Origin: Minisyncoccota bacterium
Lineage (GTDB): Bacteria > Patescibacteriota > Minisyncoccia > Phycocordibacterales > UBA2100
DNA length: 57,643 nt
Assembly: GCA_036517195.1 (NCBI GenBank)
Contig: DATDXU010000018.1
Location: forward strand, 1-57,643
Direction: 5' to 3'
The position numbers and the translations under genes were made by a program. Below the pieces are notes generated by a model, which had not been told where the DNA came from, ran no database searches, and was given only the letters and a program-made list of their open reading frames with translations. How positions within the stretch are numbered: the stretch's first letter is position 1; the number at the start of each line of letters is the position of its first letter. Positions 1-40,720 of this stretch are shown here, piece by piece.

Positions 1-105
1 TTGGGTGAGGATGGGAATCGAAAGACGGAGCGCGACGGCGCGAGTCGGGGTCGCGTGAATTTTCACCAGAAAATTACGCGTGACCGATTCCCCTCATCGC
101 CCGCA
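1..105 (+). repeat. tRNA-3'-end-mimic structured repeat, copy A (may continue left of the window)
   Basis: Positions 5-105 are identical to 142-242. It starts GTGAGGATGGGAATCGAAAG and ends GACCGATTCCCCTCATCGCCCGCA; the two ends can pair. It contains an internal hairpin CGCGT(G)AATTTT/AAAATTACGCG. Confidence 0.85.
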
Positions 106-112
106 TCTGCGA

Positions 113-139
113 AAAGAGTGCCTTTACGACACTCTTTTT
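113..139 (+). terminator. hairpin plus T-run separating repeat copies A and B
   Basis: AAAGAGTG (113-120) pairs with CACTCTTT (130-137) and is followed by TT. Confidence 0.4.
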
Positions 140-242
140 GCGTGAGGATGGGAATCGAAAGACGGAGCGCGACGGCGCGAGTCGGGGTCGCGTGAATTTT
201 CACCAGAAAATTACGCGTGACCGATTCCCCTCATCGCCCGCA
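138..242 (+). repeat. tRNA-3'-end-mimic structured repeat, copy B
   Basis: Identical to copy A, with a 137-bp period. Confidence 0.85.
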
Positions 243-249
243 GTAATAA

Positions 250-277
250 ATAAAAAACAGACCCACATGGTGGGTCC
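250..277 (-). terminator. rho-independent terminator of the small membrane ORF
   Basis: Stem GACCCAC/GTGGGTC (260-276). The A-run at 252-257 becomes a T-run on the minus strand, just downstream of the stop at 302. Confidence 0.55.
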
Positions 278-301
278 GTTGCGAGAGGTGCGATACGTTA
301 A

Positions 302-517
302 CTATTCGTGGAAGCTTCTTCCTGCCCACGTGAGTCGTGGTCCGTTTATAATCGTTGGCAATGCGCGTTGTTTGATTGCCACATACACGGTGTATGCCAT
401 TGATGGCACACACAGAATTATCACAATGCCGATGACTACGGCTATTTGATGTAGTCCCAAGACCCACAGTGCGAGTGGCGCCGCGATCATTACAGCCATA
501 AGAGCGAATGCGAGCAT
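302..517 (-). CDS. small hydrophobic membrane protein (71 aa)
   Basis: The ORF has two hydrophobic stretches (MLAFALMAVMIAAPLALWVLGL..VVIGIVIILCV) and a terminator downstream. Confidence 0.45.
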   Translation of the reverse strand: MLAFALMAVMIAAPLALWVLGLHQIAVVIGIVIILCVPSMAYTVYVAIKQRALPTIINGPRLTWAGRSFHE

Positions 518-585
518 TGGCGTTTTCCTTTTTTCATTTACCCATCACTACTGTATGCTACAAACATCGACTCGACAATGTCACT

Positions 586-1524
586 ATGAAAAAACCAATT
601 ATCGTAACTGGCGCGTGCGGGTTTATCGGATACAACATTGCGAAGTTTTTATCTGATGCGGGGCATGAGCTCATACTCGTTGATCGAAATAAGCGGGACG
701 ATATGGTACAGACACCGCACAATGCGAAGTACATAGATGCGGAAGAATTGCTGTCGGGTGAGCAGGTGAAGAACTCTTCTGTGGTGGTGCATATGGGGGC
801 GTCGGTTAACACGGGAGACACTGACCGCGCGGCGGTTATGAGCAACAATTTTGAATACAGCAAGCAACTCTTTGACATGTGCGCGAGCGCGGGCACTCGC
901 TTGATATATGCATCTTCCGCGGCGACCTATGGCGATGGTTCGCGCGGGTTTGATGATACGCGGCGCGACCTGAAGCCGCAAAATTACTATGCCGAGTCGA
1001 AACATCTTTTTGACGAATATGTGCGTGACGCCTCAAAAAAACCTCCGCAATCGGTGGGGCTCAAGTTTTTTAACGTGTATGGACCGCACGAATCTCACAA
1101 GGGGCGTATGGCATCCTCCGTGTTTTTTGCATATGAACAAGCGAAAAAAAGTGGGGTTATCACCTTGTTTCGTTCGCACAATCCACACTACGAGAACGGC
1201 GAACAGGCGCGAGATTTTGTGTATGTGGCGGACGTTGTTAGCGTCGTCAATTTTTTCATAGAACATGGGAATCTTTCGGGGATTTTCAATGTGGGAACAG
1301 GGACGGCGCGCACATTCAAAGACCTTGCGCTCTCTGTGTTCTCCGCTCTCGGGAAGGAACCGAAGATTGAATTTATTGATACGCCGGAGCAATTTCGCGC
1401 GCAGTATCAGTACTTTACTCAAGCGAATATTGAGCGATTGCGCGATGCGGGGTACTCTCTGCCGTTCAGGACGATAGAAGACGGCGTACGGGAATACGTA
1501 CAGTATCTGGAAAAGAATATCTAA
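586..1524 (+). CDS. hldD: ADP-L-glycero-D-manno-heptose 6-epimerase-like NAD-dependent epimerase
   Basis: Motifs VTGACGFIGYN (Rossmann), YASSAATYG, YAESK, FFNVYGPHESHKGRMASS, RDFVYVADV and QYQYFTQANIERLRDAGY resemble HldD/RfaD. The start is placed at the internal ATG (MKKPIIVTG). Confidence 0.8.
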   Translation: MKKPIIVTGACGFIGYNIAKFLSDAGHELILVDRNKRDDMVQTPHNAKYIDAEELLSGEQVKNSSVVVHMGASVNTGDTDRAAVMSNNFEYSKQLFDMCASAGTRLIYASSAATYGDGSRGFDDTRRDLKPQNYYAESKHLFDEYVRDASKKPPQSVGLKFFNVYGPHESHKGRMASSVFFAYEQAKKSGVITLFRSHNPHYENGEQARDFVYVADVVSVVNFFIEHGNLSGIFNVGTGTARTFKDLALSVFSALGKEPKIEFIDTPEQFRAQYQYFTQANIERLRDAGYSLPFRTIEDGVREYVQYLEKNI

Positions 1525-2411
1525 AGAGCGAGGAATTTTTTTGCTAACCGCACGGCGTCGTTTGTTTTGTTTGGCGCAAACCAACGGATGTCTTTGTTGC
1601 GTTTCCAGTAGGTGAGTTGTCGTTTTGCGTATCGGTAGATGTCGCGAGAGAGCCCGGCGTCAAATTCAGTGCGAGTAATTTGTTTTTGTAACAGGTGCGC
1701 GAGCCAACGGTATTCAAGACCAAGGTTTTCCATACGTTGGTAGGAAAGTCCATTTTTATAGAGTCGCCGAGCTTCCGCAACCATACCGAGTTTCATGCGT
1801 GCCATAAGGCGTGCGCGAATGCGTTTTCTTAAATCTTCTTTTGATGGAGAAATGCCAATCCACAGCACGTTGTAAGGAGGGTGTGTTGTTCGTGATGGCG
1901 GAGCTTTTTTAGACAAAGCAATTTCAAGGGCGCGCACGAGGCGGCGTTTGTTGTGCGTATCTATATTTTTTGCTCGACGCGGGGCGTATTTTCTAAGAAG
2001 CGCGAGTAATTGTTGGTTTGTTTTTTTGTCTAAACGCGCTCGCATTTTTTTGTTTGGAGGGACGTCAGCGAGGGATATTCTTCCCACAAGCGTGTCAATA
2101 TAAAATCCTGTTCCGCCAGAGACGATTGGGACAAGGGTGCGCTTCGTGATGTCGCGCGCCGCACGTCTCCCCTGTATTAAAAAATCGTGCGCAGTGAATG
2201 TTTTGTTGAGCGATGCGATGTCGATCATGTGATGAGGGACGCCCCGCATCTCGCGTTTTGTGATTTTCCCCGTTCCGATATCTAGTCCACGGTACACCTG
2301 GCGACTGTCGGCAGAAATCACCTCGCCGTTCAATTTTTTGGCGAGCGCCACAGCGAAAGCGCTCTTACCTGACGCGGTGGGACCCACGAGTGCGATTAGT
2401 TTGACCCGCAT
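1521..2411 (-). CDS. miaA: tRNA dimethylallyltransferase
   Basis: LIALVGPTASGKSAFAVALA (P-loop), ISADSRQVYRGLDIGTGK, VPHHMIDI. The start is placed at MRVKLIAL (ATG at 2411). Confidence 0.9.
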   Translation of the reverse strand: MRVKLIALVGPTASGKSAFAVALAKKLNGEVISADSRQVYRGLDIGTGKITKREMRGVPHHMIDIASLNKTFTAHDFLIQGRRAARDITKRTLVPIVSGGTGFYIDTLVGRISLADVPPNKKMRARLDKKTNQQLLALLRKYAPRRAKNIDTHNKRRLVRALEIALSKKAPPSRTTHPPYNVLWIGISPSKEDLRKRIRARLMARMKLGMVAEARRLYKNGLSYQRMENLGLEYRWLAHLLQKQITRTEFDAGLSRDIYRYAKRQLTYWKRNKDIRWFAPNKTNDAVRLAKKFLAL

Positions 2412-2475
2412 ATGATTGTGCGTCAGTATAGTCGAAGAACAGTAGCGAACGCTACCAAGAAAGGAACACGCAATA

Positions 2476-3186
2476 ATGCCAAACGGGAATCCTGTAGTCG
2501 CTGAACTCGTAGAGCGAATGCTCCAGTGTGGTGCTGTTTCTATTCGTGATGTGGATGCCGGTGAAGAGCCATTTTTGTATTCTTCCGGAAACAGAGGACC
2601 CGGGTACGTCATGATGAAAGGACTAGTCAGTCAGCGGAAATTGCTCACGGATTTGGTGCGTAATTTGGCGCACAAAGTGTATGCGCGCTTTCCTGATGTG
2701 GAATATGTTGCTGGAAACGCGACGGGTGGAATGATTCCGGGGTGGATTATGGCAGAACAACTGTCTCGTATTACAGGGCGCCACGTGCCGTATGTGTATG
2801 TTAGAAATACGAGAAAAATCGGCGGACACGGAGAGTCCATCACGGGAGATAAGCAAAATGCTTTTTTCAGTTCCAAGCGACGCGGACTGGTGGTTGAAGA
2901 ACTTGTGAATTTTGCCGAAACCACCGTGAACAGTGCTTCTGTGCAAAGAGATGCTGGACACACTGTGCAGTATGCGGCAACCATTCTTTTTTACGACCAT
3001 CTCAAATCTCATCTCTCACTCACGAATTCGGGAGTTAAACTCATATCTCTTATGACGTTAGCCGAGCTACTCACTGTAATAAGAGATAAAAGATTACTCG
3101 AACCTCACCTTGTTGACAGCTACATGTCGTTTCTTGCCGATCCTGTGGGCTGGCAAAAGTTTCGCAACCTCTTACCGAAGGAGTGA
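2476..3186 (+). CDS. pyrE: orotate phosphoribosyltransferase homologue (divergent PRPP loop)
   Basis: It aligns by eye with PyrE (FLYSSGNRGPGY, VAGNATGGMIPG, YVRNTRKIGGHG). The PRPP-loop position reads VVEELVNFAETT rather than the canonical D-rich/TTGG form. Confidence 0.6.
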   Translation: MPNGNPVVAELVERMLQCGAVSIRDVDAGEEPFLYSSGNRGPGYVMMKGLVSQRKLLTDLVRNLAHKVYARFPDVEYVAGNATGGMIPGWIMAEQLSRITGRHVPYVYVRNTRKIGGHGESITGDKQNAFFSSKRRGLVVEELVNFAETTVNSASVQRDAGHTVQYAATILFYDHLKSHLSLTNSGVKLISLMTLAELLTVIRDKRLLEPHLVDSYMSFLADPVGWQKFRNLLPKE

Positions 3187-3191
3187 CGCAT

Positions 3192-3962
3192 ATGCCGTAT
3201 GATGCAAACGTAAGGCAAAACGGACCATTTCTTTGGGTCGCTCTTGATGGATTGGGTGAGAACGAAAAAAAGACGCTTGCTATCGCGCAGAAACTTCATG
3301 AAGTCGGCGGACACTTTGGTTTCAAGGTAAACAACGATTGGCTTTTGAAACATGAAATCAATGCCGCTCGTCGTATGTTGCCCGACAGAGATATTTTTGC
3401 AGACACCAAGATGTGGAATGGCGCCTCAACCATGGCGCGCTCGTTTCTCACTCTGCACAATGCCGGGTTTACCCTGACGAATGCCCACGCATTGGCTGGT
3501 GGAAGTTACGAAGGCGCCGGTTCCGAACTCAAAAAGGCAATCACTATGTTTCGGAGTGGTGTGGGGAAAGGTCCGCACATGAGCATCTATGGGCTCACCA
3601 TTCTCACACATTACAATGGTGTGTATTCTCGGCGCATGTTCAAGAGCGAACTTCCTTGGATGGTTCTATCTTTAACACGAGAAGCCCTAGCCGCTGGTTG
3701 TGACGGTGTTATTGTGCCCGGGAATATGCTCTCGCGCATGTATCGGTATATGATATATCCGAAGATTGTGCCGGGCGTTCGATTCGCGGGTGAGGGTGAT
3801 CAGGAGAAAAAACACGAAGAAACTGTCACTCCGGAATCGCTTGCTGGTCGTACGGATGTGCAAGCTGTTTGCGGAAGTCCTATTATGAATAGTTCTGACC
3901 CCGTTGCTGCCTTGAAGCGTATGCTCGAGGCGCTCCATTGGGAAATGAGTACGCCCACCTAG
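3192..3962 (+). CDS. pyrF: orotidine-5'-phosphate decarboxylase homologue (non-canonical DxKxxD)
   Basis: WVALDG, FKVNND, FADTKMWN (in place of DxKxxD), NAHALAGG, GLTILTH, IVPGVR and VCGSPI align with PyrF. AAGGAG lies 8 nt before the ATG at 3192. Confidence 0.6.
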   Translation: MPYDANVRQNGPFLWVALDGLGENEKKTLAIAQKLHEVGGHFGFKVNNDWLLKHEINAARRMLPDRDIFADTKMWNGASTMARSFLTLHNAGFTLTNAHALAGGSYEGAGSELKKAITMFRSGVGKGPHMSIYGLTILTHYNGVYSRRMFKSELPWMVLSLTREALAAGCDGVIVPGNMLSRMYRYMIYPKIVPGVRFAGEGDQEKKHEETVTPESLAGRTDVQAVCGSPIMNSSDPVAALKRMLEALHWEMSTPT

Positions 3963-4005
3963 AAAGATATAGGTGGGCAATTTTTTATACAAAAAAATCG
4001 TCCCG

Positions 4006-4623
4006 CTAAAAGCGGGACGGTTTTGAGTGGGTGAGTGAGCCGTACAGATTTTTTGTTTGCAGAAGCACAAGGATGCCCACCATGAAGGCGACAATGAACG
4101 AGGCGATGGCGTCTGCCAAAATCCATCCCTTCCACAGAATGAGAATTCCCGCGCCAACGACCGCAACACTGGTCAGGAGGTCGGCAACGATGTGCCACAC
4201 TTGCCCCCAATAGGTGTGTGCTTCTTCGTGTGCGTGTTTGGTGTGATGCACAAAATAAAGTTGAAGTACATTGCCGAAAAGTCCCACGATGGCGAAGAAC
4301 AGAAGAGCTCCTGCCGGAATGTGAACGGGATTGAAGAGTCGCTCAATACCTTTTGTGCCTGCCCAATATGCAACCCACGCGAGGAACATGATGTTGCACA
4401 CTGATGTGAGACGCTCCATCGTTGTCGGGTTCTTTTGTGATTGTCGTATGAGGAATGCCCATAATCCAATAGCAAACGGGACACTGTGTCCCAGCACATG
4501 CCACGCGTCAGCATCAAGCGCGTGGCTTCCCGTAATGGAAACGCCTATTTTTTCAAACACAAAAATTGCAAGCGTAATCGCGATGAGCGCGATATACGCC
4601 CGCACTTCGCGACCCAGTGTCAT
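4006..4623 (-). CDS. cation diffusion facilitator, transmembrane domain only (205 aa)
   Basis: SHALDADAWHVLGH and VWHIVADLLTSVAVV resemble the CDF TM2/TM5 metal-site motifs. There is no C-terminal cytoplasmic domain. Confidence 0.65.
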   Translation of the reverse strand: MTLGREVRAYIALIAITLAIFVFEKIGVSITGSHALDADAWHVLGHSVPFAIGLWAFLIRQSQKNPTTMERLTSVCNIMFLAWVAYWAGTKGIERLFNPVHIPAGALLFFAIVGLFGNVLQLYFVHHTKHAHEEAHTYWGQVWHIVADLLTSVAVVGAGILILWKGWILADAIASFIVAFMVGILVLLQTKNLYGSLTHSKPSRF

Positions 4624-4735
4624 TCGGAATTCCCCTTGACCTATATTCCTGTGTGTATGCTAATGCATAATCACTAATAGTACAAGGTGCGCAGACGGTT
4701 TCGTGATGTCGTGAACGTGGGATAGAGTTCTATCC

Positions 4736-5749
4736 ATGGCTTCTTCGGGCTCTCACATTATCGGTTTTTGGCCCGTTGTTTCAGCTCTCGTGGGTAACTC
4801 ACTGGTTGCGGTTATCAAACTCGGAATAGCAAGTGTATCCGGTTCGAGCTCCATGTTTTCCGAGGGTATTCACAGTGTTGCCGATACGCTCAATCAGGGA
4901 TTTTTGTTCATCGGCTTGGTCCGTTCACGTAAAAAACCGGATGATGATTTTGGATACGGATATGGAAGGGAGCGTTTTTTTTGGGCACTTCTCTCTGCGT
5001 GCGGAATATTTTTTGTTGGCGCGGGAGTTACGCTGTATCACGGCATCATGTCCCTGTTTGAACCTTCACCAATTGAATTTAGCGTATACATATATGTAGT
5101 GCTTCTTGCTTCATTTGTCATTGAACTGTGGACGTTGTATGTGGCGGCGCGTTCCATACGGCGCATGTTTCCAGACCTATCGTGGCGAGAACGTTTAGAA
5201 CTTTCAGACCCGACGACACTTGCGGTGTATCTTGAGGATTGTGTCGCGGTTGTGGGTGTTTTGATTGCCGCTTTCAGTATCGCACTCTCGTATTACACGG
5301 GGAATTATGTATGGGATGCGCTCGGATCGCTCATCATCGGATGCATGCTTGCCGGAGTCGCAGTCCTTCTCATTATGAAAAACCGTTTCTATCTCATGGG
5401 GCGCGCTATGCCTGAGGACCTCAAAGAAGAGATTGTCGCGCTGCTTGTTAGAGACCCCGTTATTGAAAAGGTGCTGGTGTTTAAATCAACGACGCTTGAT
5501 TTCAATGTATACCGACTTTCCTGCGAGGTTGAAATAAACGGTCCATCGCTTTTGAAGGAAATGTATAAGCGCTCAACACTCCGTTCTCAATTCGATGAAA
5601 TAAAAAATGATTTCGAAGAGTTTAAGCGTTTTTGTGTTCATTATTCCGACCGCATGCCCCGCTTGATAGGGAAGCACATTGACATCGTTGAGGCGAAACT
5701 TATGAAAAAATTTCCTTCCGTTCGCCACATTGATATTGAGGTGAATTAA
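4736..5749 (+). CDS. cation diffusion facilitator family transporter (full length)
   Basis: VIKLGIASVSGSSSMFSEGIHSVADTLNQ and GYGRERFFWALLSACGIFFVGAG, with six hydrophobic segments plus a C-terminal domain. Confidence 0.75.
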   Translation: MASSGSHIIGFWPVVSALVGNSLVAVIKLGIASVSGSSSMFSEGIHSVADTLNQGFLFIGLVRSRKKPDDDFGYGYGRERFFWALLSACGIFFVGAGVTLYHGIMSLFEPSPIEFSVYIYVVLLASFVIELWTLYVAARSIRRMFPDLSWRERLELSDPTTLAVYLEDCVAVVGVLIAAFSIALSYYTGNYVWDALGSLIIGCMLAGVAVLLIMKNRFYLMGRAMPEDLKEEIVALLVRDPVIEKVLVFKSTTLDFNVYRLSCEVEINGPSLLKEMYKRSTLRSQFDEIKNDFEEFKRFCVHYSDRMPRLIGKHIDIVEAKLMKKFPSVRHIDIEVN

Positions 5750-5786
5750 AAAAGAAGACGATCCCCCCTGTGAAGGACCGTCAGCG

Positions 5787-6191
5787 TTAAGTCATTGCCC
5801 ACCTGTTTAATTTTGGTGCGCAGTAGAAAATAGTGAACGCAGAGAACAGAAGGATTCCTACTAACGTCATGGCGATGTATTCTGGAGAAAGTTCCCAGAG
5901 TGAGAAACCGACCCATTCCCTTAGTTGGTCGCCGATGAATGATTCTCTGCCGGAAATTGTTTCTGGATTGTATCTTGCTCGAAGTCCCATCTCGAGCGCG
6001 CTTAACGGACATCCTAAAAATGCGAGTTGCCCGATGGTGGTGCTCATAACAGCGACGAGATGGCAGTCTTGGAGCAACTTCCTCTTTGTATTGTATAAGA
6101 GAGAACTCGACACAAGTAACACAATCCAGAAAAGGTGGAACCAAAGGACGATGTCAGCGAGATTTTGATAGATTCCCATGACATACCCCAA
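5787..6191 (-). CDS. DUF2784-like membrane protein
   Basis: Hydrophobic ORF carrying GCPLSALEMGLRARY, which resembles the CPLT-x-E-x-LR signature of DUF2784. Confidence 0.5.
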   Translation of the reverse strand: MGYVMGIYQNLADIVLWFHLFWIVLLVSSSLLYNTKRKLLQDCHLVAVMSTTIGQLAFLGCPLSALEMGLRARYNPETISGRESFIGDQLREWVGFSLWELSPEYIAMTLVGILLFSAFTIFYCAPKLNRWAMT

Positions 6192-6278
6192 GTGTGTACG
6201 CTCCGCAGAGCAGGTTATTTACTGATAAGTATCTTAACACCTAGTTGTTACTAAGTCAAGGGGTGCACTATTTTCAAC

Positions 6279-6422
6279 GAGAGGCCTGCCTGCCGGCAGG
6301 CGGGGAGTCGGCCAAGAACGAATTTTTTCGCCGTCGCTCCAAAATTCTTCTTGGCCATGCTCGCGCGACCCCGCCTTCTGGCGTGGTACCTCGCGCTCAC
6401 TTTCGACTCCCTCTCCCAGCTA
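6279..6422 (-). repeat. tRNA-3'-end-mimic structured repeat, tRNA-Leu-distal copy
   Basis: It shares an identical block of about 56 nt (GCTCGCGCGACCCCGCCTTCTGGCGTGGTACCTCGCGCTCACTTTCGACTCCCTCT) with 6470-6617. It ends ...CTCTCCCAGC, like the tRNA-Leu acceptor. Confidence 0.85.
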
Positions 6423-6469
6423 CAAAATAATAGTCGCCAGACGCTAACGCCTCTGGCTCTTTTATTTTA

Positions 6470-6617
6470 TGCTGGGAGAGGCCTGCCGGCAGGCAGGCTG
6501 GGAGTCGGCCAAGAGCTCGTTTTATTGCCGTCGCAACAAAACTCCTCTCAGCCCTGCTCGCGCGACCCCGCCTTCTGGCGTGGTACCTCGCGCTCACTTT
6601 CGACTCCCTCTTCAGCA
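6470..6617 (-). repeat. tRNA-3'-end-mimic structured repeat, tRNA-Leu-proximal copy
   Basis: Plus-strand TGCTGGGAGAGG (6470-6481) equals the start of the tRNA-Leu reverse complement (6665-6676). A palindromic insert CCTGCCGGCAGG.. follows, then GGGAGTCGG. The far end, CTTTCGACTCCCTCTTCAGCA, is the inverted partner. Confidence 0.85.
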
Positions 6618-6664
6618 GAAAACAGTAATCGCCGAGAGATTCTCTCTCGGCTCAACTGTTTTTA

Positions 6665-6745
6665 TGCTGGGAGAGGGAGTCGAACCCTCATGAGTTGCCT
6701 CGATCGATTTTGAGTCGATTGCGTCTGCCATTCCGCCATCCCAGC
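6665..6745 (-). tRNA. tRNA-Leu (anticodon CAA), long variable arm
   Basis: Reverse complement GCTGGGATGGCGGAATGGCAGACGCAATCGACTCAAAATCGATCGAGGCAACTCATGAGGGTTCGACTCCCTCTCCCAGCA. It folds as a cloverleaf with anticodon loop CTCAAAA and T-loop TTCGACT. Confidence 0.9.
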
Positions 6746-6820
6746 GTTTTCTTAGTGTACGGCCATTTGTTGTAAACACAAATTCCCCAGATTCCTTTCT
6801 CTTGGGCGTATCTGGACTGC

Positions 6821-6828
6821 GGTATACT
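6821..6828 (+). promoter_or_regulatory. -10-like box GGTATACT, 6 nt before the parB ATG (leaderless candidate)
   Basis: GGTATACT at 6821-6828 and ATG at 6835. There is no Shine-Dalgarno sequence between them. Confidence 0.45.
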
Positions 6829-6834
6829 GTTTTT

Positions 6835-7812
6835 ATGTCCAGTGGATACTATAACGACTCTATTTTTTGGGTTGAAGTTGAACGCATAAAACCGAATCCG
6901 TTTCAACCGAGGCGCACGTTTGATGAGGCGTCACTCGCATCTTTGTCAGAATCTATTCGTCAGTATGGCATTCTTCAGCCACTTACCGTTACGCGCCATG
7001 AAATTGAGCGCCCGGGCGAAGGTGTGTTTGTTGAATATGAACTTATCGCCGGTGAGAGGCGACTACGAGCGGCAAAAATGGCAGGTATAGCGCAGGTTCC
7101 TGTGGTCATTCGGAGTTCGGAAGATACTGATGCGATGAAACTTGAACTTGCTATCATTGAGAATTTACAACGAGAAGATTTGTCTCCGATTGACAGAGCG
7201 AAGGCATTCAAACAACTGGTGGATGATTTCGGGCTCAAGCATGTGGACATTGGTAAAAAAATAGGTAAGAGCCGTGAGTATGTAAGTAACACCCTGCGCA
7301 TTTTGATGCTTCCAGAAGAGATACAAAATGCCCTTGCGTCGGGCGAAATTACAGAAGGGCATACGCGCCCGCTCCTCATGCTCGCCGAACGCCCCGAAGA
7401 ACAGCGCACTCTGTTCAAAGAAATTATTACGAAGCGACTTACGGTGCGTGATACGGAGCAGGTGGCGCGGCGTGTTGCGACAGAGCGTGTGCGCAAATTT
7501 GATTTAACGCCTGATCTGCTCGCGCTTGAACGGCAGCTTACCGAGACCTTGGGTACGCGTGTGCGCATTGAAAAGAAGGATACGGGCGGGAAGGTTCTTA
7601 TCGACTTTTTCTCACCCGATGATTTGGCACACCTGTGTATGCAACTGGCAATACAAAGTAAAAAACACCAAGTAACACCCGTGCCCGCACCCGCGACTGA
7701 AAAAGCGCCTGATGCCAGTCTGAGAGAGGAGGGAACAGAAGTTCCTTCCGCGCCTCCTCAAGAATCAGCAAACGAAGATGATACGTATTCACTCCGCAAT
7801 TTCAGCGTGTAG
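6835..7812 (+). CDS. parB: chromosome partitioning protein ParB/Spo0J
   Basis: IKPNPFQPRRTFD, GILQPLTV, ELIAGERRLRAAKMAG and an HTH region (IGKSREYVSNTLRIL). Confidence 0.9.
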   Translation: MSSGYYNDSIFWVEVERIKPNPFQPRRTFDEASLASLSESIRQYGILQPLTVTRHEIERPGEGVFVEYELIAGERRLRAAKMAGIAQVPVVIRSSEDTDAMKLELAIIENLQREDLSPIDRAKAFKQLVDDFGLKHVDIGKKIGKSREYVSNTLRILMLPEEIQNALASGEITEGHTRPLLMLAERPEEQRTLFKEIITKRLTVRDTEQVARRVATERVRKFDLTPDLLALERQLTETLGTRVRIEKKDTGGKVLIDFFSPDDLAHLCMQLAIQSKKHQVTPVPAPATEKAPDASLREEGTEVPSAPPQESANEDDTYSLRNFSV

Positions 7813-7820
7813 AGGAATGC

Positions 7821-9362
7821 TCACCGTTGTTTTTCTTTTTGCGCGGTAAGTGCCGCACGAATGTGTTTTTTTGCCATATTTGTTTTTGCCATATCCTGCC
7901 ATTTGCGCGATGGTTTTGCGGATTTTTTCGTGAGTATTTCAACAATGTCGCCGTTCTTGAGTTCTGTATCAAGGGAGGCCATTTTTCCATTTACTCTTGC
8001 TCCAGACATGGAGTTGCCGATGTCGGAGTGAATGGCGTACGCAAAGTCAACCGGAGTTGCCGCAACCGGCAGGTCTATAACATCCCCGCGCGGAGTGAAT
8101 GCGAACACGCGGTGATTAAAAAAATCAGATTTTAGTGTTTGTAGGTATTCTTCTGACGCGGTAGCGTCATCGTGGGCAAGTTCTGTAACCCACTCGGGCA
8201 CCCCATGCGCGCGGACGGAAGAAGATTCTTGTTGGCTTTCGTTAAGTCGGGGGAAAAATTGCCTGATCCAATCTAATCCGACACCTCCGCGGGATCCCTC
8301 TTTGTGCGTCCTTTGTTTTCCTTTGTAGAGGAGGTGGGAGGCAACGCCAAAGAGAGCTTCTTGGTGTTGAGATTCCGTGCGTAATTGAATTTCAAGAGCG
8401 CCCCCATCTCCCGTATACACGGTGGTATGTATGGACTGGTATCCGTTTGGTTTTGGAAACGCGATGTAATCTTTTATTTTTCCTGGAACGGGTCTCCATT
8501 GGGCGTGGATTACACCGAGCGCGGAATAACAATCGGCAATGGCGGGAAATATGATGCGGAGCGCCAGAATGTCATAAATTTGGTCGATGTTCCAGTTTTT
8601 GCGTTCTAATTTTCTGAACAAACTATATACGCCCTTAATGCGTGCCTCAGTGCGGAACGTGCGGATGCCCGATTCCGCCAGTTGGCGTTTTACGTCCCGT
8701 TCTGTTTTCTCAAGACGTTTTTCATTCTCGCGACTGCGTTCTTTCAAAAGTTCTTTGACTTTTTCATACTCTTTCGGGAGCGCGTGGGGAAATGCGGCAT
8801 CCTCAAGGTCATTTTTAAGCACACTCATGCCGAGTCGGTCTGCGATGGGCGCGTAAATTTCAAGTGTTTCTTGCGCTATGCGCGTGCGCTTCACTGCGTC
8901 CGGCACATGTTCAAGAGTTCTCGCGTTGTGCAGGCGATCCATGAGTTTTATGATGAGGATGCGAATATCTTTTGCTGTCGCCGCAAATAACTTTCGAAGA
9001 GACTCTGTATGTCTTTCTAGTCCTTGGTAACGGAGTTTTCCAAGTTTTGTCACTCCATCAACGAGCTCTAGTACGCCGATTCCAAACTGTTCTTGTACAG
9101 CTTCTCCGCTTATCTTTGCGTCTTCTACCGTGTCGTGAAGGAGTCCCGCGGCAACCGCGTCCGCGTCTACCCCTATGTCTGCCAGCAAGTATCCGACTTC
9201 TGCCGGATGTATGAAATAGGGTTCACCAGAAAATCGCGTTTGTCCTTGGTGTGCTTTTTTGGAAAATTCGTATGCTCGTGTCACGAGAGAAATGTCTCGC
9301 TCCTCCTTGCTGTGAAGGACATTGAGAATGTCAGAGAGGGGACGAATACTTGCGTTTTGCAT
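7821..9362 (-). CDS. relA: (p)ppGpp synthetase/hydrolase, RelA/SpoT homologue, short form ending after the TGS domain
   Basis: HD domain (HPAEV..LHDTVED), synthetase region (YIAFPKPNGYQSIHT) and TGS (VFAFTPRGDVIDLPVAATPVDFAYAIHSDIG). No ACT/RRM tail. Confidence 0.9.
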   Translation of the reverse strand: MQNASIRPLSDILNVLHSKEERDISLVTRAYEFSKKAHQGQTRFSGEPYFIHPAEVGYLLADIGVDADAVAAGLLHDTVEDAKISGEAVQEQFGIGVLELVDGVTKLGKLRYQGLERHTESLRKLFAATAKDIRILIIKLMDRLHNARTLEHVPDAVKRTRIAQETLEIYAPIADRLGMSVLKNDLEDAAFPHALPKEYEKVKELLKERSRENEKRLEKTERDVKRQLAESGIRTFRTEARIKGVYSLFRKLERKNWNIDQIYDILALRIIFPAIADCYSALGVIHAQWRPVPGKIKDYIAFPKPNGYQSIHTTVYTGDGGALEIQLRTESQHQEALFGVASHLLYKGKQRTHKEGSRGGVGLDWIRQFFPRLNESQQESSSVRAHGVPEWVTELAHDDATASEEYLQTLKSDFFNHRVFAFTPRGDVIDLPVAATPVDFAYAIHSDIGNSMSGARVNGKMASLDTELKNGDIVEILTKKSAKPSRKWQDMAKTNMAKKHIRAALTAQKEKQR

Positions 9363-9370
9363 ATGAAATC

Positions 9371-9380
9371 AGTATACCCC
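9371..9380 (-). promoter_or_regulatory. -10-like box GGGGTATACT, 8 nt before the relA ATG
   Basis: The reverse complement of 9371-9380 is GGGGTATACT, the same decamer as upstream of dnaX. Confidence 0.45.
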
Positions 9381-9463
9381 CACACTAATTCGATTTGCTA
9401 ATGGATTGCCGCGGTATATAGTGTAACCGGTTTGTTTGTGTCACAAAAAGGAGTACCCCGGAC

Positions 9464-9601
9464 ATGGGTTCGGTTTTCTTTGTGATTGGTTTACTTATTG
9501 CTGCTTACTTGGGAATACTTGCGGCGCCAAAGGGAAAGGGTTTGTTTGGTGCCGTCGTGCTTATGATGGTGTGGTGGATGATCTTCACGATTATTGCTTG
9601 A
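9464..9601 (+). CDS. small membrane protein (45 aa; below the ORF-track cutoff)
   Basis: AAAGGAG lies about 11 nt before the ATG at 9464. MGSVFFVIGLLIAAYLGILAAPKGKGLFGAVVLMMVWWMIFTIIA gives two hydrophobic helices. A terminator follows. Confidence 0.5.
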   Translation: MGSVFFVIGLLIAAYLGILAAPKGKGLFGAVVLMMVWWMIFTIIA

Positions 9602-9625
9602 CGCCCCCCGCGTCAAAAATTTGAA

Positions 9626-9664
9626 AGACCAGAGCTATTCTATGCTTCCTGGTCTTTTCTTTTG
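9626..9664 (+). terminator. rho-independent terminator
   Basis: AGACCAG (9626-9632) pairs with CTGGTCT (9649-9655), followed by TTTTCTTTT. Confidence 0.6.
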
Positions 9665-9702
9665 TGCGGATTATGATTTGGACACGTTTTGTTTGAACAG
9701 CG

Positions 9703-9809
9703 TTCGGGAATGGTTTTCGGTCACGGATAATTTCCTCGCCGTCGCTCGGAAGTTTCCGCGACCCCGGCTCGTGGCTCGTCCTACTGGACTCGCATCGCTC
9801 CGCCCGACC
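9703..9809 (-). repeat. degenerate orphan copy of the structured repeat family (no adjacent tRNA)
   Basis: Plus-strand GGGAATGGTTTTCGGTCACGGATAATTTCC...GCCGTCGC...CCGCGACCCCGGCTCG parallels the reverse complement of copy A (GGGGAATCGGTCACGCGTAATTTTC...CACGCGACCCCGACTCG). Confidence 0.6.
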
Positions 9810-9844
9810 AAAACGAGGGCACATGCAACGTAGGTTGCATGTTT

Positions 9845-12037
9845 CTATTTTGATTTCGTAAGTTTGTGAGGGTTATGCATCGAGCACTGTTTGTTGCTAC
9901 AACGCTCCGGTATCGTTTTGGTCCCTTGCATCATGAGAGAACCACATTCCTTGCAGAGTGCCCCCGTTGGGCGCGCCTTGATGGCGTTTTTACATGTAGG
10001 ATAATTTGAACACGAAAAGAACGGACCGAAACGCCCGCGTCGTTCCACCATCTCACCGCCTTTGCAGGTTGGGCACGCAACTCCGGTTTTAGATTTTGCT
10101 TCTTCGGCTGGGTCTTTTTTTACAAATTTACATTTTGGATATTTTGAACAGGCGATGAATTGCCCGAAGCGCCCCTCGCGTTGTATCAGTTTTCCATTCC
10201 CGTCTTTACACTCTGGGCACGCTTCGCCGATGTCTTTTGGTGGAGCGAGTTCTGTGCCGTCTTCCTTGCGCGCTCCGAGACAATCCGGAAAACGTTTGCA
10301 ACTCATAAATCTTCCGTTTCGAGAGAGTTTGTATACCATTGAGCCCTCGCATACAGGACACGGAAATTCTTTGGGGGCGTCTCCCATGTTTGTCAGCTTT
10401 TCTATTTTTGCCTTACTTTTCACCGCTTTGGTGAACGGTGTATAAAAATTCTTGAGGGTTTTTTCGTACTCACGCGTGCCTTCCGCTATTTCATCAAGAC
10501 CATTTTCCATTTCTGCCGTGAAGGTGTCGCTTATGTAGTCTGCAAAGTGTTGTTCCAGGAATGTTGAAACAACGTCGCCTGTGTAGGTGGGTATGAGCGT
10601 CCGTCCCTGCTTATCCGCGTACCCCCTGTCTTCCAGTGTTTTTATTATAGAGGCGTAGGTAGAAGGTCTTCCGATTCCTCGTTTTTCTAATTCTTTAATA
10701 AGTCCCGCTTCGCTGTATCTGGCGGGTGGTTGTGTTTCTTTGCCTTCAGAGTGTGCCTCTAGCAACCGTAACGGATCTGTATCAGCGACTTTGGGTAGTT
10801 CTACATCTTCGCCACGAGCGTCAGGATCAGCGGAGAGCCAGCCGTCGAAGAGTACACGAGAGCCTGTTATCACAAAATCGGGTATTGTGTCTTTGGGCGA
10901 CGTAACGCGCGCGCGCGCGGTAATTTTTGTCCGTAAAATTTTTGCTTCAGTCATTTGTGAAGAAAGGGCGCGCGCGCGGATGAGTGTATACAACTCTTTC
11001 TGTTCGCCGACAGCGCCGACGCTTTTCTTGTGCGCGTCAGTCGGGCGGATTGCTTCGTGCGCCTCTTGTGCCGATTTGCTCTTGGTTTTGTAGGTGCGAG
11101 CTTGGATGTATTTCTGTCCGAATTCTTTCTCGATTACGGATACCAATTGTGTCTGTGCTTCTAAGGCGAGGTTGGTGCTATCGGTACGCATGTAGGTGAT
11201 GTGTCCGGCTTCATACAGCTTTTGCGCAATGCGCATGGTGCGCGACGGGGAAAATCCCAATCTGGTTGATGCTGTTTGCTGTAGGGTGGATGTGGTGAAT
11301 GGCGCGCGCGGAAGACGGGCTGTTTCCGATTCTTCAACGGAAACAACATTCCACACTCCCGCTCGTGCCACCTCGAGAATGCGATGTGCTTCCATTTCTG
11401 TTTTCGGCTCTTCTGTGCAGGTACCAACAAATGTTTGTTTCTTCTCTGTTTCAAAATCGGCGGTGAGAACCCAAAATTTTTCAGGTATAAAAGCGCGAAT
11501 TTCGCGCTCGCGTTCCATGAGGATGCGGAGAGCGGGAGATTGTACCCGCCCCGCGGATAATCCATACCGTACCTTTTTCCAGATTAATCCAGAGAGGTCG
11601 TACCCGAACAGGCGGTCAAGTACGCGCCGTGCCTCTTGTGCGCGCCGCAAATGTTCATCTATTGTACGCGGGTGGGCGAGCGCTTCTTGGACAGCGCGCT
11701 CCGTAATTTCGTGGAACACAATGCGTTTTGGATGTTTCAACCCCATCGTTTCGGCTATATGCCACGCAATGGCTTCTCCTTCTCGGTCGGGGTCGGTCGC
11801 GAGTATCACTTCGGAAGCGGTTTTGGCGACTTCTGTAAGTTCGTCAATGACATGTTGTTTTTCTTTCACTACCTGGTAGTGGGGTATGAATCCACCCTCA
11901 ATGTCGACGGCGTCTTTATTGCTTTTTGGCAAATCACGAATGTGCCCGACTGACGCGCGTACAACAAAATCTTTGCCAAGATATTTTTCAATCGTCTTGG
12001 CTTTTGCGGGTGACTCTACTATGACAAGTTTCGTCAT
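9845..12037 (-). CDS. topA: DNA topoisomerase I with C-terminal zinc ribbons
   Basis: The Toprim start LVIVESPAKAKTIEKYLG, GHIRDLP, ITYMRTDS, and multiple CxxC...CxxC fingers at the C-terminus. Confidence 0.95.
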   Translation of the reverse strand: MTKLVIVESPAKAKTIEKYLGKDFVVRASVGHIRDLPKSNKDAVDIEGGFIPHYQVVKEKQHVIDELTEVAKTASEVILATDPDREGEAIAWHIAETMGLKHPKRIVFHEITERAVQEALAHPRTIDEHLRRAQEARRVLDRLFGYDLSGLIWKKVRYGLSAGRVQSPALRILMEREREIRAFIPEKFWVLTADFETEKKQTFVGTCTEEPKTEMEAHRILEVARAGVWNVVSVEESETARLPRAPFTTSTLQQTASTRLGFSPSRTMRIAQKLYEAGHITYMRTDSTNLALEAQTQLVSVIEKEFGQKYIQARTYKTKSKSAQEAHEAIRPTDAHKKSVGAVGEQKELYTLIRARALSSQMTEAKILRTKITARARVTSPKDTIPDFVITGSRVLFDGWLSADPDARGEDVELPKVADTDPLRLLEAHSEGKETQPPARYSEAGLIKELEKRGIGRPSTYASIIKTLEDRGYADKQGRTLIPTYTGDVVSTFLEQHFADYISDTFTAEMENGLDEIAEGTREYEKTLKNFYTPFTKAVKSKAKIEKLTNMGDAPKEFPCPVCEGSMVYKLSRNGRFMSCKRFPDCLGARKEDGTELAPPKDIGEACPECKDGNGKLIQREGRFGQFIACSKYPKCKFVKKDPAEEAKSKTGVACPTCKGGEMVERRGRFGPFFSCSNYPTCKNAIKARPTGALCKECGSLMMQGTKTIPERCSNKQCSMHNPHKLTKSK

Positions 12038-18271: not shown

Positions 18272-18305
18272 AGTACTGTCTAATTCGCGCGAATTAGACA
18301 GTACT
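18272..18305. repeat. perfect 34-bp palindrome with core CTAATTCGCGCGAATTAG
   Basis: AGTACTGTCTAATTCGC|GCGAATTAGACAGTACT. It lies between the convergent dnaX and ArsR genes. No T-run follows on either strand. Confidence 0.9.
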
Positions 18306-18338: not shown

Positions 18339-18623
18339 TCACGCCGTTTTCAGCGTGGCGATGAGTATCGGGTGTCTCTGTTTTGGTAAAGAGTATTGTA
18401 CTGTTGTGCTCGTTTGTTTACTTTCAACAACGTTTGCGTGTGCAAGTATGCGCAGATGTTTTGAGGTTGATGTAAAAGAAAGTTGTATTTTTTCTGCAAC
18501 AGTTCCTACGGGTAATGAACCCTCTTTATGTAAAAGTTGCACGATGAGTAATCGGCGATTATTTCCAAGCGCTCGTAATATTCGCTCGGTCTCTGTTGTT
18601 CTTTTTTTGTCTCCAAATAACAT
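18339..18623 (-). CDS. ArsR/SmtB-family HTH transcriptional regulator
   Basis: ILRALGNNRRLLIVQLLHKEGSLPVGTVAEKIQLSFTSTSKHLRILAHANVV shows the typical ArsR winged helix. Confidence 0.8.
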   Translation of the reverse strand: MLFGDKKRTTETERILRALGNNRRLLIVQLLHKEGSLPVGTVAEKIQLSFTSTSKHLRILAHANVVESKQTSTTVQYSLPKQRHPILIATLKTA

Positions 18624-18638
18624 TGTGTTTAGTATTGT

Positions 18639-18656
18639 CTAATTCGCGCGAATTAG
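18639..18656. promoter_or_regulatory. candidate ArsR operator (core palindrome CTAATTCGCGCGAATTAG)
   Basis: An 18-bp perfect palindrome 16 nt upstream of the ArsR start codon, in the divergent region shared with tRNA-Gln. Confidence 0.45.
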
Positions 18657-18679
18657 CAAATGGTGGGGCGCGAGCTGTG

Positions 18680-29982: not shown

Positions 29983-30132
29983 TGACCCTACGGGGAATCG
30001 GCGCAGCTCACTAAGATTTCTGTTCGTGCTTCGCGCTCCATAAATCTAAGTGGCTCCTGCCCTGGCTCGGCGTTCCCACTCGCTTCGCTCACGGGAGCCC
30101 TGCGCCTCCGCCTTTCGATTTCCCGTAAGATC
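29983..30132 (-). repeat. tRNA-3'-end-mimic structured repeat downstream of tRNA-Glu
   Basis: 29983-30000 (TGACCCTACGGGGAATCG) is identical to 30181-30198, the 3' end of tRNA-Glu. The other end, TTCGATTTCCCGTAAGATC, is its imperfect inverted copy. The interior is GC-rich and self-complementary. Confidence 0.85.
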
Positions 30133-30180: not shown

Positions 30181-30252
30181 TGACCCTACGGGGAATCGAA
30201 CCCCGCTTTCGACCTTGAGAAGGTCGCGTCCTAGCCGATAGACGATAGGGCC
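30181..30252 (-). tRNA. tRNA-Glu (anticodon CTC)
   Basis: Reverse complement GGCCCTATCGTCTATCGGCTAGGACGCGACCTTCTCAAGGTCGAAAGCGGGGTTCGATTCCCCGTAGGGTCA. Anticodon loop TTCTCAA. Confidence 0.9.
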
Positions 30253-40684: not shown

Positions 40685-40720
40685 CCTTATTTTCTAATTC
40701 GCGCGAATTAGAAAATAAGG
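40685..40720. repeat. perfect 36-bp palindrome with core CTAATTCGCGCGAATTAG
   Basis: CCTTATTTTCTAATTCGC|GCGAATTAGAAAATAAGG, between convergent genes. No T-run follows. Confidence 0.9.

Follow-up and report, generated by a model that had tools for sequence, protein, structure and literature searches.

Tandem copies behind a tRNA-Leu gene belong to a family of structured, tRNA-linked elements spread across the Candidate Phyla Radiation

Introduction

Transfer RNA (tRNA)-linked repeats (TLRs) of Escherichia coli have been known since 1978 and are still unexplained (PMC8144298, citing Egan & Landy 1978 and Rudd 1999). They comprise 22 units of several unrelated sequence types, distributed over ten loci with one to five units per locus; they lie directly downstream of a tRNA or rRNA gene on the same strand, and their last 18-19 nt are the 3’ end of that upstream tRNA or rRNA (PMC8144298). 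The RNAs rrA, rrB and rrF are located behind the first terminator and are made by read-through, and their repeated 3’ end has been proposed as an RNase E processing signal (PMC8144298). Here we analyzed a 57,643-nt stretch of DNA from a Minisyncoccota bacterium (assembly GCA_036517195.1, contig DATDXU010000018.1; hereafter the window), in which two tandem copies of a repeated element follow a tRNA-Leu gene on the minus strand. We found that these copies, A1 and A2, are members of a family of structured RNA elements of ~100-150 nt that lie on the tRNA strand downstream of tRNA and transfer-messenger RNA (tmRNA) genes across the Candidate Phyla Radiation (CPR).

A preliminary description of the locus, made from its letters alone, held that it was not a described element type, which was too strong because the E. 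coli TLRs and the RtT family share its hallmark. What is new is a CPR-wide family with strong covariation, a single core that stands behind most tRNA types and tmRNA, and a predicted strand-swap between the tRNA and the element. A literature search for a published description of the CPR element found none, and the main text of Weinberg 2017 contains no tRNA-linked CPR motif.

Results

Two tandem copies carry the 3’ end of tRNA-Leu

On the minus strand, a tRNA-Leu(CAA) gene (6665-6745; found by ARAGORN and scored at 57.8 bits by the Rfam tRNA model) is followed by a spacer of ~46 nt (spacer 1, 6618-6664), copy A1 (6470-6617), a second spacer (spacer 2, 6421-6469) and copy A2 (6279 to ~6420), confirming the order of tRNA, hairpin, copy, hairpin and copy given in the preliminary description. 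Both spacers contain a terminator-like hairpin, formed by GCCGAGAGA/TCTCTCGGC at 6651-6631 in spacer 1 and located at ~6456-6435 in spacer 2 (GCCAGAG GC..GC G TCTGGC with a T-rich tail; its centre GCCAGA/TCTGGC is placed by a scan at 6449-6435). We scored the copies with a covariance model, R1, built from a same-length seed alignment of 25 relatives; a MAFFT alignment of five window copies was discarded as misaligned. R1 gave 59.8 bits (E 2e-16) for A1 and 62.2 bits for A2.

The template for the arms of the copies is the last ~18 nt of tRNA-Leu, CGACTCCCTCTCCCAGCA. A1 consists of a 5’ arm (6617-6601), the junction AAAG, helices P2 and P3, and a 3’ arm (6507-6470), and it ends in CGACTCCC, a 19-nt hairpin insert AGCCTGCCTGCCGGCAGGC, and CTCTCCCAGCA. 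This 3’ arm is the 3’ end of tRNA-Leu, matched over 8 + 10 nt and interrupted within the 3’ strand of the T-stem; the earlier account of a copied tRNA end carrying a 19-nt hairpin therefore stands, except that the insert does not lie between the T-stem and the acceptor. A2 has the same 3’ arm, cut off after CTCTC, and its 5’ arm, GCTGGGAGAGGGAGTCG, is the exact reverse complement of the tRNA-Leu 3’ end over 19 nt (inverted-repeat pair I7, 88% complementary over 26 nt). A1, too, starts with the reverse complement of this end, in agreement with the inverted partner described before for copy 1. In spacer 1, complementary stretches of the tRNA-Leu trailer, AAAACAGU / ACUGUUUU, pair around its hairpin, and this pairing lengthens the helix between the tRNA 3’ end and the 5’ arm in the whole-transcript fold.

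The longest block identical in A1 and A2 measures 57 nt (6611-6555 = 6414-6358), close to the ~56 nt stated before. Over the next ~45 nt the copies differ and yet both fold, with z-scores versus shuffles of -5.1 (A1) and -5.9 (A2), strongly supporting, along with the covariation described below, the proposal that structure is kept while sequence varies. A ‘clamp’, GGGGTCGCG, said to be common to the Leu copies and positions 1-242, turned out to be non-homologous: it is the 3’ strand of P2 in the former and J2/3 plus the 5’ strand of P3 in the latter. The core pattern of the element has four matches in the window versus 0 in 100 shuffles. The A1-A2 pair also occurs in three assemblies of the same species from different samples (L001-L003), a further one (L004) ends within copy 1, and two short contigs (L005, L006) extend only to copy 2. 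Since the pair is found in independent assemblies, it is not an assembly artefact, a concern raised with the first description.

The core is a covarying three-way junction

RNAalifold and the model alignment define a three-way junction composed of a closing helix P1, formed by the two arms, J1/2 (GAAA), P2, J2/3 (R-G) and P3, with no linker back to P1. The base of P2, in which G-N-C is paired with G-N’-C, leads into a GGA/GA internal loop and then a hairpin whose length is free. P3 has a near-invariant GGUCG/UGACC base, including a G.U pair, and continues into a variable helix that is often tipped with GA-GC-GACG-GC-GA.

The compensatory-change test suggested in the preliminary description gave compensatory changes at 23 of the 34 pairs with RNAalifold. 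In an alignment of 136 sequences, 93.7% of the cells were paired and two-sided changes occurred in 34/34 pairs, counts that lean towards the structure because the alignment was fitted to the model. The covariation score of this alignment was 0.523, compared with 0.157 for shuffled sequences and 0.05-0.09 for slid partners. All of the column pairs with the highest mutual information were helix pairs, P1 gained two further covarying pairs, and three unpaired positions covaried as a triple. G.U pairs outnumbered A.C pairs by 245 to 55, implying that the folded strand is the tRNA-sense strand. We regard the core as RNA-like, with single-stranded DNA as a formal alternative.

Additional hairpins accompany the core in some lineages. 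Just 5’ of the P1 arm, many lineages (for example L128 4362-4382, L141, L074 and L169 2290-2320) carry a small hairpin with a conserved CUGC loop and a covarying stem, followed by a G-U(-G) linker, which suggests that the transcript probably begins upstream of the modeled element. A kissing interaction between the CUGC loop and a GCAG loop was considered and rejected, as it was inconsistent across loci. In one subfamily (L048, L056, L132, L160, L081, L096, L103, L121, L125, L145, L119), GUGACCGA is followed by AAG and an additional hairpin, GYG-UACU-CRC, which precedes the tRNA-derived T-stem strand and parallels the 19-nt insert in the arms of A1 and A2.

The family is linked to tRNA and tmRNA genes

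Scanning a species-representative genome set with the strict core pattern yielded at least 120 loci, including Saccharibacteria and Paceibacteria/Parcubacteria lineages; among the matches listed, the latter comprise Kaiser-, Nomura-, Zambryski-, Yonath-, Taylor-, Lloyd-, Wolfe-, Falkow-, Campbell- and Adlerbacteria and Minisyncoccia. Outside Patescibacteria, the matches listed contain four loci from three Elusimicrobia metagenome-assembled genomes (MAGs) and one MAG labelled Bdellovibrionales, and three of the pattern loci listed are evident chance matches in GC-rich coding DNA. With the covariance model, we found 136 members in 100 species-representative loci, nearly all from Patescibacteria and a few from Elusimicrobia. 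A metagenome scan returned 16 loci, 11 of which were attributed to chance (no match to the element model and no tRNA gene). The core subtype seen in the preliminary description (GAAAGUGAGCG..CGCGAGCAKGG) also follows tRNA-Trp, tRNA-Lys, tRNA-Asp and tRNA-Ala in other metagenomes, each time with local arms.

The strict pattern had 0 matches in 2.9 million viral contigs, and blastn of phage and plasmid collections gave no match. The 38 matches of a loose pattern in the viral contigs were all chance or coding, several of them in HNH endonuclease genes; the match in L036 is an HNH endonuclease coding stretch (..KGG..NL..LC.NCH..), and L017, L025 and L026 carry the same pattern. Rfam 15 gave no element match at the gathering score and, at E ≤ 10 on window positions 1-10000 and seven CPR loci, only unrelated weak overlaps, with RtT, hammerhead, hatchet, pistol, twister-sister, Y RNA and mascRNA among the negatives; no known Rfam family at either level explains the copies, a possibility that the preliminary description had allowed for.

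A same-strand tRNA ends <150 nt upstream of 81/125 pattern matches, often with an arm identical at 18/18 positions. Together with the Leu, Trp and Glu loci of the window, this corroborates the earlier idea that the core is shared and the termini copy the local tRNA. Among the 136 model members, 87 begin ≤150 nt downstream of a same-strand tRNA, typically with a gap of ~50 nt between the tRNA end and the modeled start, 13 lie behind another copy, 10 sit at the edge of their locus and 26 lack an upstream tRNA according to ARAGORN. At least four of these 26 follow tmRNA genes (tmRNA/element at 119-512/566-685 in L130, 7215-7607/7040-7160 in L055, 1569-1967/1368-1494 in L061 and 6299-6706/6756-6876 in L111), and the element arms in L111 copy the tmRNA 3’ end; further ones come after degraded copies or after tRNA-like ends that went unrecognised. 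In total, about three quarters of the members stand directly behind a tRNA gene, a tmRNA gene or a preceding copy. Almost every isoacceptor family occurs upstream of an element. The element is carried by 86/147 tRNAs in these loci, a proportion that is too high for genomes at large, as only loci with an element were selected. Tandem pairs are present in L128, L078, L054 and L094. By our own estimate (~25 copies of 150 nt in a genome of <1 Mb), this unannotated RNA family may take up roughly 0.5% of the DNA.

In L099, an element (4690-4800, minus strand) comes after a stretch resembling the T arm and the acceptor 3’ strand of a tRNA (..GGGTTCGAATCCTGATATCTTCGCA) that neither ARAGORN nor Rfam called. 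This upstream sequence may be a degenerate or unusual tRNA-like RNA.

The arms follow the neighboring tRNA and predict a strand-swap

Across the family, the 3’ arm reads ..(G/C)UGAC-CGA.. and then tRNA sequence, with identity beginning at C56 of the T loop. In well-preserved 3’ arms, identity mostly stops 1-3 nt past the discriminator, and CCA is included if it is gene-encoded. The 3’ arm is perfect over 19 nt in 25/82 tRNA-linked loci, and elsewhere the match is partial and decays from the acceptor end. The 5’ arm complements the T-loop/T-stem part in all copies and reaches further in many. In loci with diverged 3’ arms, it pairs better with the real 3’ end of the tRNA in 42 cases and worse in 8. 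Closing helices made of a locus’s own arms have a predicted energy of -16.7 kcal/mol, versus -11.0 kcal/mol when arms of other loci are used.

Individual loci show how closely the arms track the tRNA. An L136 tRNA-Leu with the T loop UUCAAGU has this sequence mirrored in both element arms, ..CUUGAAAG.. and ..CCAAGUCC.., and in the orthologous tRNA-Trp loci of the window and L169 the acceptor stem of the tRNA changes from CAUCGC to CAGCGC, the 3’ arm shows the same change, and the 5’ arm shows one that compensates for it. A retroviral-type primer-binding site was considered as an identity for the 5’ arm and rejected, as its complementarity enters the gene-encoded trailer and omits CCA.

The RNA that runs from tRNA position T54 to the 5’ arm is predicted to form one closed hairpin, long or branched (-22 to -82 kcal/mol), which encloses the terminator-like hairpin and, in many lineages, also the small CUGC-loop hairpin. 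Because the tRNA’s 3’ end equals its copy and both are complementary to the 5’ arm, there are two possible global folds. In the swapped fold, the 5’ acceptor and T-stem strands of the tRNA pair with the distal copy, and the tRNA’s own 3’ end pairs with the 5’ arm. This is the predicted minimum-energy fold of the tRNA plus element for the Trp, Leu and Glu loci, and it was predicted in 28/29 loci with perfect arms. The strand-swap is a purely thermodynamic prediction, and co-transcriptional folding and fast RNase Z cleavage could block the swapped fold.

Other copies in the window and their presence in relatives

With filters off, R1 found exactly six significant copies in the 57-kb window, two at tRNA-Leu, two at tRNA-Trp, one at tRNA-Glu and one orphan near topA; the last two had been overlooked in the preliminary description. 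The Trp copies, B1 (1-105) and B2 (138-242), are on the plus strand and both score 73.7 bits. They lie downstream of a tRNA-Trp gene that is just outside the window and is visible at 5298-5369 of L001. The 3’ arm of B2, CGATTCCC(C)TCATCGCCCGCA, is the tRNA-Trp 3’ end, matching over 21 nt with one additional C. Copy D (29984-30130, minus strand; 29.9 bits, E 3e-07) lies 50 nt downstream of tRNA-Glu(CTC) (30181-30252) and has a 3’ arm, CGATTCCCCGTAGGGTCA, that equals the tRNA-Glu 3’ end at 18/18 positions. No element copy was found at tRNA-Gln in the window or at tRNA-Val just outside it.

B1 occupies the start of the contig, where other assemblies have tRNA-Trp: compared with L001 5266-5402, window positions 1-137 hold an extra copy at the place where four assemblies of the same species carry tRNA-Trp and its upstream sequence. 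Either the contig start represents a genuine variant with two copies, or the repeat has produced a chimeric end of the contig. Repeats of this kind probably interrupt assemblies at tRNA loci, the start of this window being an example.

The orphan copy, C (9703-9822, minus strand; 80.2 bits), stands downstream of topA and lacks a tRNA. Its closing helix does not resemble tRNA, a different sequence takes the place of the GAAA junction, and its 5’ arm, GUUUUGGUC, competes with the base of P3 over the GACC segment. Comparison with relatives at ~70% ParB identity showed that the topA copy is present in the window, in L166 (5767-5886) and probably in L065 (7679-7798), and absent in L168 and L169. 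At tRNA-Leu, the relatives were found either inverted without an element, with the gene abutting parB (L166/L167, L168), or filled, with one divergent copy after the gene (L169). ParB homologues place the window among Kaiserbacteria. The tRNA-Leu(CAA) gene beside parB occupies the same syntenic position in opposite orientations in different Kaiserbacteria (L166 2398-2480 and L168 2382-2464 versus window 6665-6745 and L169 2353-2434).

Within one locus, L136, most differences between the near-identical copies at tRNA-Leu(GAG) and tRNA-Val(UAC) (1140-1238 and 1509-1607) are C-to-U changes, clustered in one P3 strand, where G.U pairs are preserved, and in the arm (TCCC to TTTT). This pattern suggests deamination-type mutation filtered through RNA pairing.

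Apart from the element, a perfect 18-bp palindrome, CTAATTCGCGCGAATTAG, occurs three times in the window (18274-18301, 18633-18660 and 40688-40715). Two of these palindromes flank a small minus-strand open reading frame (18339-18623) just upstream of tRNA-Gln. The palindrome looks like a candidate operator or protein-binding site.

Discussion

A proposed trailer RNA processed at a duplicated tRNA end

The explanation that we favor, and that we hold about as readily as we doubt, is that terminator read-through yields the element as a trailer RNA, which undergoes processing at the duplicated tRNA end, with its 5’ arm coupled to the tRNA 3’ end and its copies arising by recombination. RNA polymerase would pass the hairpin between the tRNA and the element, making the element a trailer of the tRNA transcription unit. 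A terminator-like hairpin, often with a T run, lies between the tRNA and the element in 47/82 loci, and one was found within 100 nt downstream of the element in only 31/124. The hairpin between tRNA and element matches the dual-terminator layout of E. coli rrA, rrB and rrF (PMC8144298). The duplicated acceptor/T-arm end would then allow the enzymes that mature tRNA (RNase Z or exonucleases, RNase P and the CCA-adding enzyme) to excise the element and set its ends. Of the roles suggested in the preliminary description, that of a processing substrate fits best. Pairing of the 5’ arm with either the real 3’ end of the tRNA or its copy would couple tRNA and element through the strand-swap, and the element would probably affect 3’-end formation or the fate of read-through precursors. 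The direct repeats of ~20 nt could give rise to tandem copies through unequal recombination. The match of the arms might be upheld by selection for pairing, by template switching at quasi-palindromes or gene conversion, or by both; template switching, which had also been suggested before, is a plausible way to keep the arms matched.

Several points weigh against this explanation. The 3’ arm departs from the tRNA end within its first 19 nt in 57/82 loci, so a precise tRNA-like end is not universal. Transcription, read-through and cleavage of the CPR copies are all inferred, and the intervening terminators, if efficient, would leave the elements poorly expressed. The absence of the element behind the same tRNA, or behind topA, in related genomes indicates that an individual copy is dispensable, and the topA orphan shows that the core can be independent of a tRNA. 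In addition, cores behind different tRNAs of one genome are up to 94% identical while their arms are local, and one tRNA-Trp sequence is accompanied by differing core types in L169 and L172. Near-identical cores at different tRNAs and core-type switching look like mobility or module exchange, implying that the cores act as exchangeable modules and that copies are gained and lost.

Other explanations

These last observations are shared with a different reading, that of a non-autonomous mobile DNA element with the T loop of tRNA and tmRNA genes as its target, either as a miniature element served by a recombinase in trans or as a recombination or template-switch cassette. The direct repeat of the tRNA end would be an att-type or target duplication, and the folded core would be recognised by the mobilizing machinery, possibly as single-stranded DNA. 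The direct repeat indeed spans the T loop to the tRNA end (C56 to ~1-3 nt past the discriminator), and tmRNA genes are used too; such a repeat, with tmRNA included, is reportedly the classical signature of an integrase T-loop site, as Williams is said to have set out in 2002. Mobility would also accommodate the variable presence among relatives, the 94% identical cores with local arms at different tRNAs of one genome, the swapped core types at the same tRNA-Trp, and the tandem arrays. On the other hand, the unit is only 130-200 bp long and has no open reading frame, no match to it came from the 2.9 million viral contigs or from the collections of phages and plasmids, and its inverted ends differ from locus to locus, unlike the terminal repeats of transposons. 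The genes nearest downstream of 93 elements represent 85 Pfam families, each seen at most twice, and there is no integrase, transposase or reverse transcriptase among the 25 families listed; from these neighboring genes we rejected an integrase island. Moreover, the 5’ arm and the tRNA co-evolve in orthologues, which is not expected of a decaying insertion scar, and the bias of G.U pairs towards one strand suits an RNA, as does the strict co-orientation with the tRNA. We therefore consider a mobile element unlikely, though deserving of attention. As for the ‘MITE-like’ label (miniature inverted-repeat transposable element) of the preliminary description, the arms are inverted but locus-specific, a tRNA end of ~18-21 nt is the sole repeat at the flanks, in place of a short fixed target-site duplication, and neither a transposase nor an integrase is among the nearby families listed, so we rejected it.

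A bolder reading, which we find very doubtful, is that CPR place a strand-exchange device behind most of their tRNA genes and the tmRNA gene, whose core picks the outcome by ligand or protein binding or by catalysis. With the 5’ arm on the copy, a normal pre-tRNA would be freed; with the tRNA 3’ end captured by the 5’ arm, the tRNA body would be joined to the distal copy, leaving a T-loop insertion of ~140 nt. If true, the maturation of tRNA and tmRNA would be subject, across the genome, to post-transcriptional control or to intron-like processing.

We see slim prospects for an independent small RNA resembling a tRNA minihelix, in which P1, sometimes with a hairpin, would mimic the cognate acceptor/T-arm stack, be CCA-tailed and perhaps charged, or serve as a decoy or titrator, with the core as a protein handle. 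Many arms do copy the whole acceptor 3’ strand and the discriminator, with CCA where gene-encoded, in some loci a mimic of the 5’ acceptor strand is combined with a hairpin and a T-stem strand in the manner of a reduced cloverleaf, and the covariation of P1 reaches past the modeled pairs. Nevertheless, the acceptor part is degenerate or missing in most copies, tandem units such as those in L128 keep only the T-stem part, and orphan copies lack a tRNA-like helix. No tRNA model (ARAGORN, Rfam RF00005) scores the elements, and only P1 is tRNA-derived.

Equally slim is the chance of a catalytic or ligand-sensing RNA, be it a self-cleaving ribozyme that trims the trailer, an ‘intron-like’ insertion in the T loop that the swapped fold would allow to be excised, or an aptamer that gates the release of the tRNA 3’ end. 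Near-invariant junctions and helix bases beside free outer helices, the covarying triple of unpaired positions and the predicted bistability of whole transcripts would suit such an RNA, but there is no Rfam ribozyme or riboswitch match even at E ≤ 10 on window positions 1-10000 and seven CPR loci, and the tRNA always retains its own intact 3’ end, making splicing unnecessary. A hammerhead, mapped by eye (CUGA..GA / GAAA / GUC), was rejected: it has no equivalent of G8-A9 and no A15.1-U16.1 pair, and its ‘CUGA’ is base-paired and often GUGA.

Finally, chance resemblance or an assembly artefact from collapsed or chimeric repeats is effectively refuted for 6279-6664 by the Leu pair in independent assemblies, the absence of matches in shuffles and hundreds of covarying homologues, even if the second copy in the first 137 nt, where other assemblies have tRNA-Trp, leaves the contig end uncertain.

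Comparison with known systems

Several described systems share some features with the CPR element. REP/REPIN, ERIC and Correia elements or MITEs are ~100-150 bp long, intergenic and hairpin-forming, often lie behind genes and close to terminators, and occur in tens per genome, and in such families the terminal repeats are conserved and the interior less so. The CPR element differs from them in its locus-specific termini, its conserved interior junction and its strict linkage to and co-orientation with tRNA or tmRNA genes. MascRNA from MALAT1, the plant tRNA-snoRNA dicistrons and 3’ETS-leuZ are co-transcribed or tRNA-shaped small RNAs whose ends are set by RNase P, RNase Z or RNase E. To our knowledge, none of them carries a copy of the neighboring tRNA 3’ end or has a conserved core common to multiple loci. 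3’ETS-leuZ is mentioned in the same review of the E. coli repeats (PMC8144298). With att sites of the T-loop sublocation, the CPR element has in common a flanking direct repeat of the tRNA 3’ end, the use of tmRNA and tandem accretion, and it is set apart from att-site elements by its ~130-200 bp unit, the lack of an integrase inside or enriched nearby, the inverted copy of the repeat and the covarying, RNA-like core.

The closest likeness is to the TLRs and RtT, which share with the CPR family the downstream position, the copied tRNA 3’ end and the tandem copies (seen as pairs in CPR). The tyrT locus of MG1655 has four RtT units, which score 133-137 bits with RF00391, and, like the CPR element, the RtT unit is closed by a helix, here between GGGGAAGGAU and the copied AUCCUUCCCC(CACCACCA). 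GA-GC-loop-GC-GA hairpins occur both in RtT units (L186 tyrT 1211-1995) and at the tips of CPR elements; with a loop of 3-5 nt, this module was found in 50/124 CPR cores, at 5.4 per kb versus 0.24 per kb in flanking DNA (~22-fold). It could reflect a common protein partner or distant ancestry. RF00391 had no match at E ≤ 10 (family threshold 45 bits) on window positions 1-10000 and seven CPR loci, and the CPR model had no significant match on the E. coli tyrT locus. Unlike the TLRs, the CPR family has a single three-way-junction core across loci, tRNA types, tmRNA and many CPR lineages, it occupies over half of the tRNA genes in these loci (which were selected for the element) compared with 22 TLRs at 10 loci in E. 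coli, and its repeat starts at C56 rather than at about A58.

Judged by their defining sequence features, the CPR elements and the TLRs are of the same kind, with homology not demonstrable. The rule of copying the upstream tRNA 3’ end is thus not an enterobacterial oddity, as it recurs across a huge, streamlined radiation with a conserved RNA core, and the CPR family offers a better comparative handle on its function, whether in 3’-end processing, in quality control of read-through precursors or in selfish colonization of tRNA genes.

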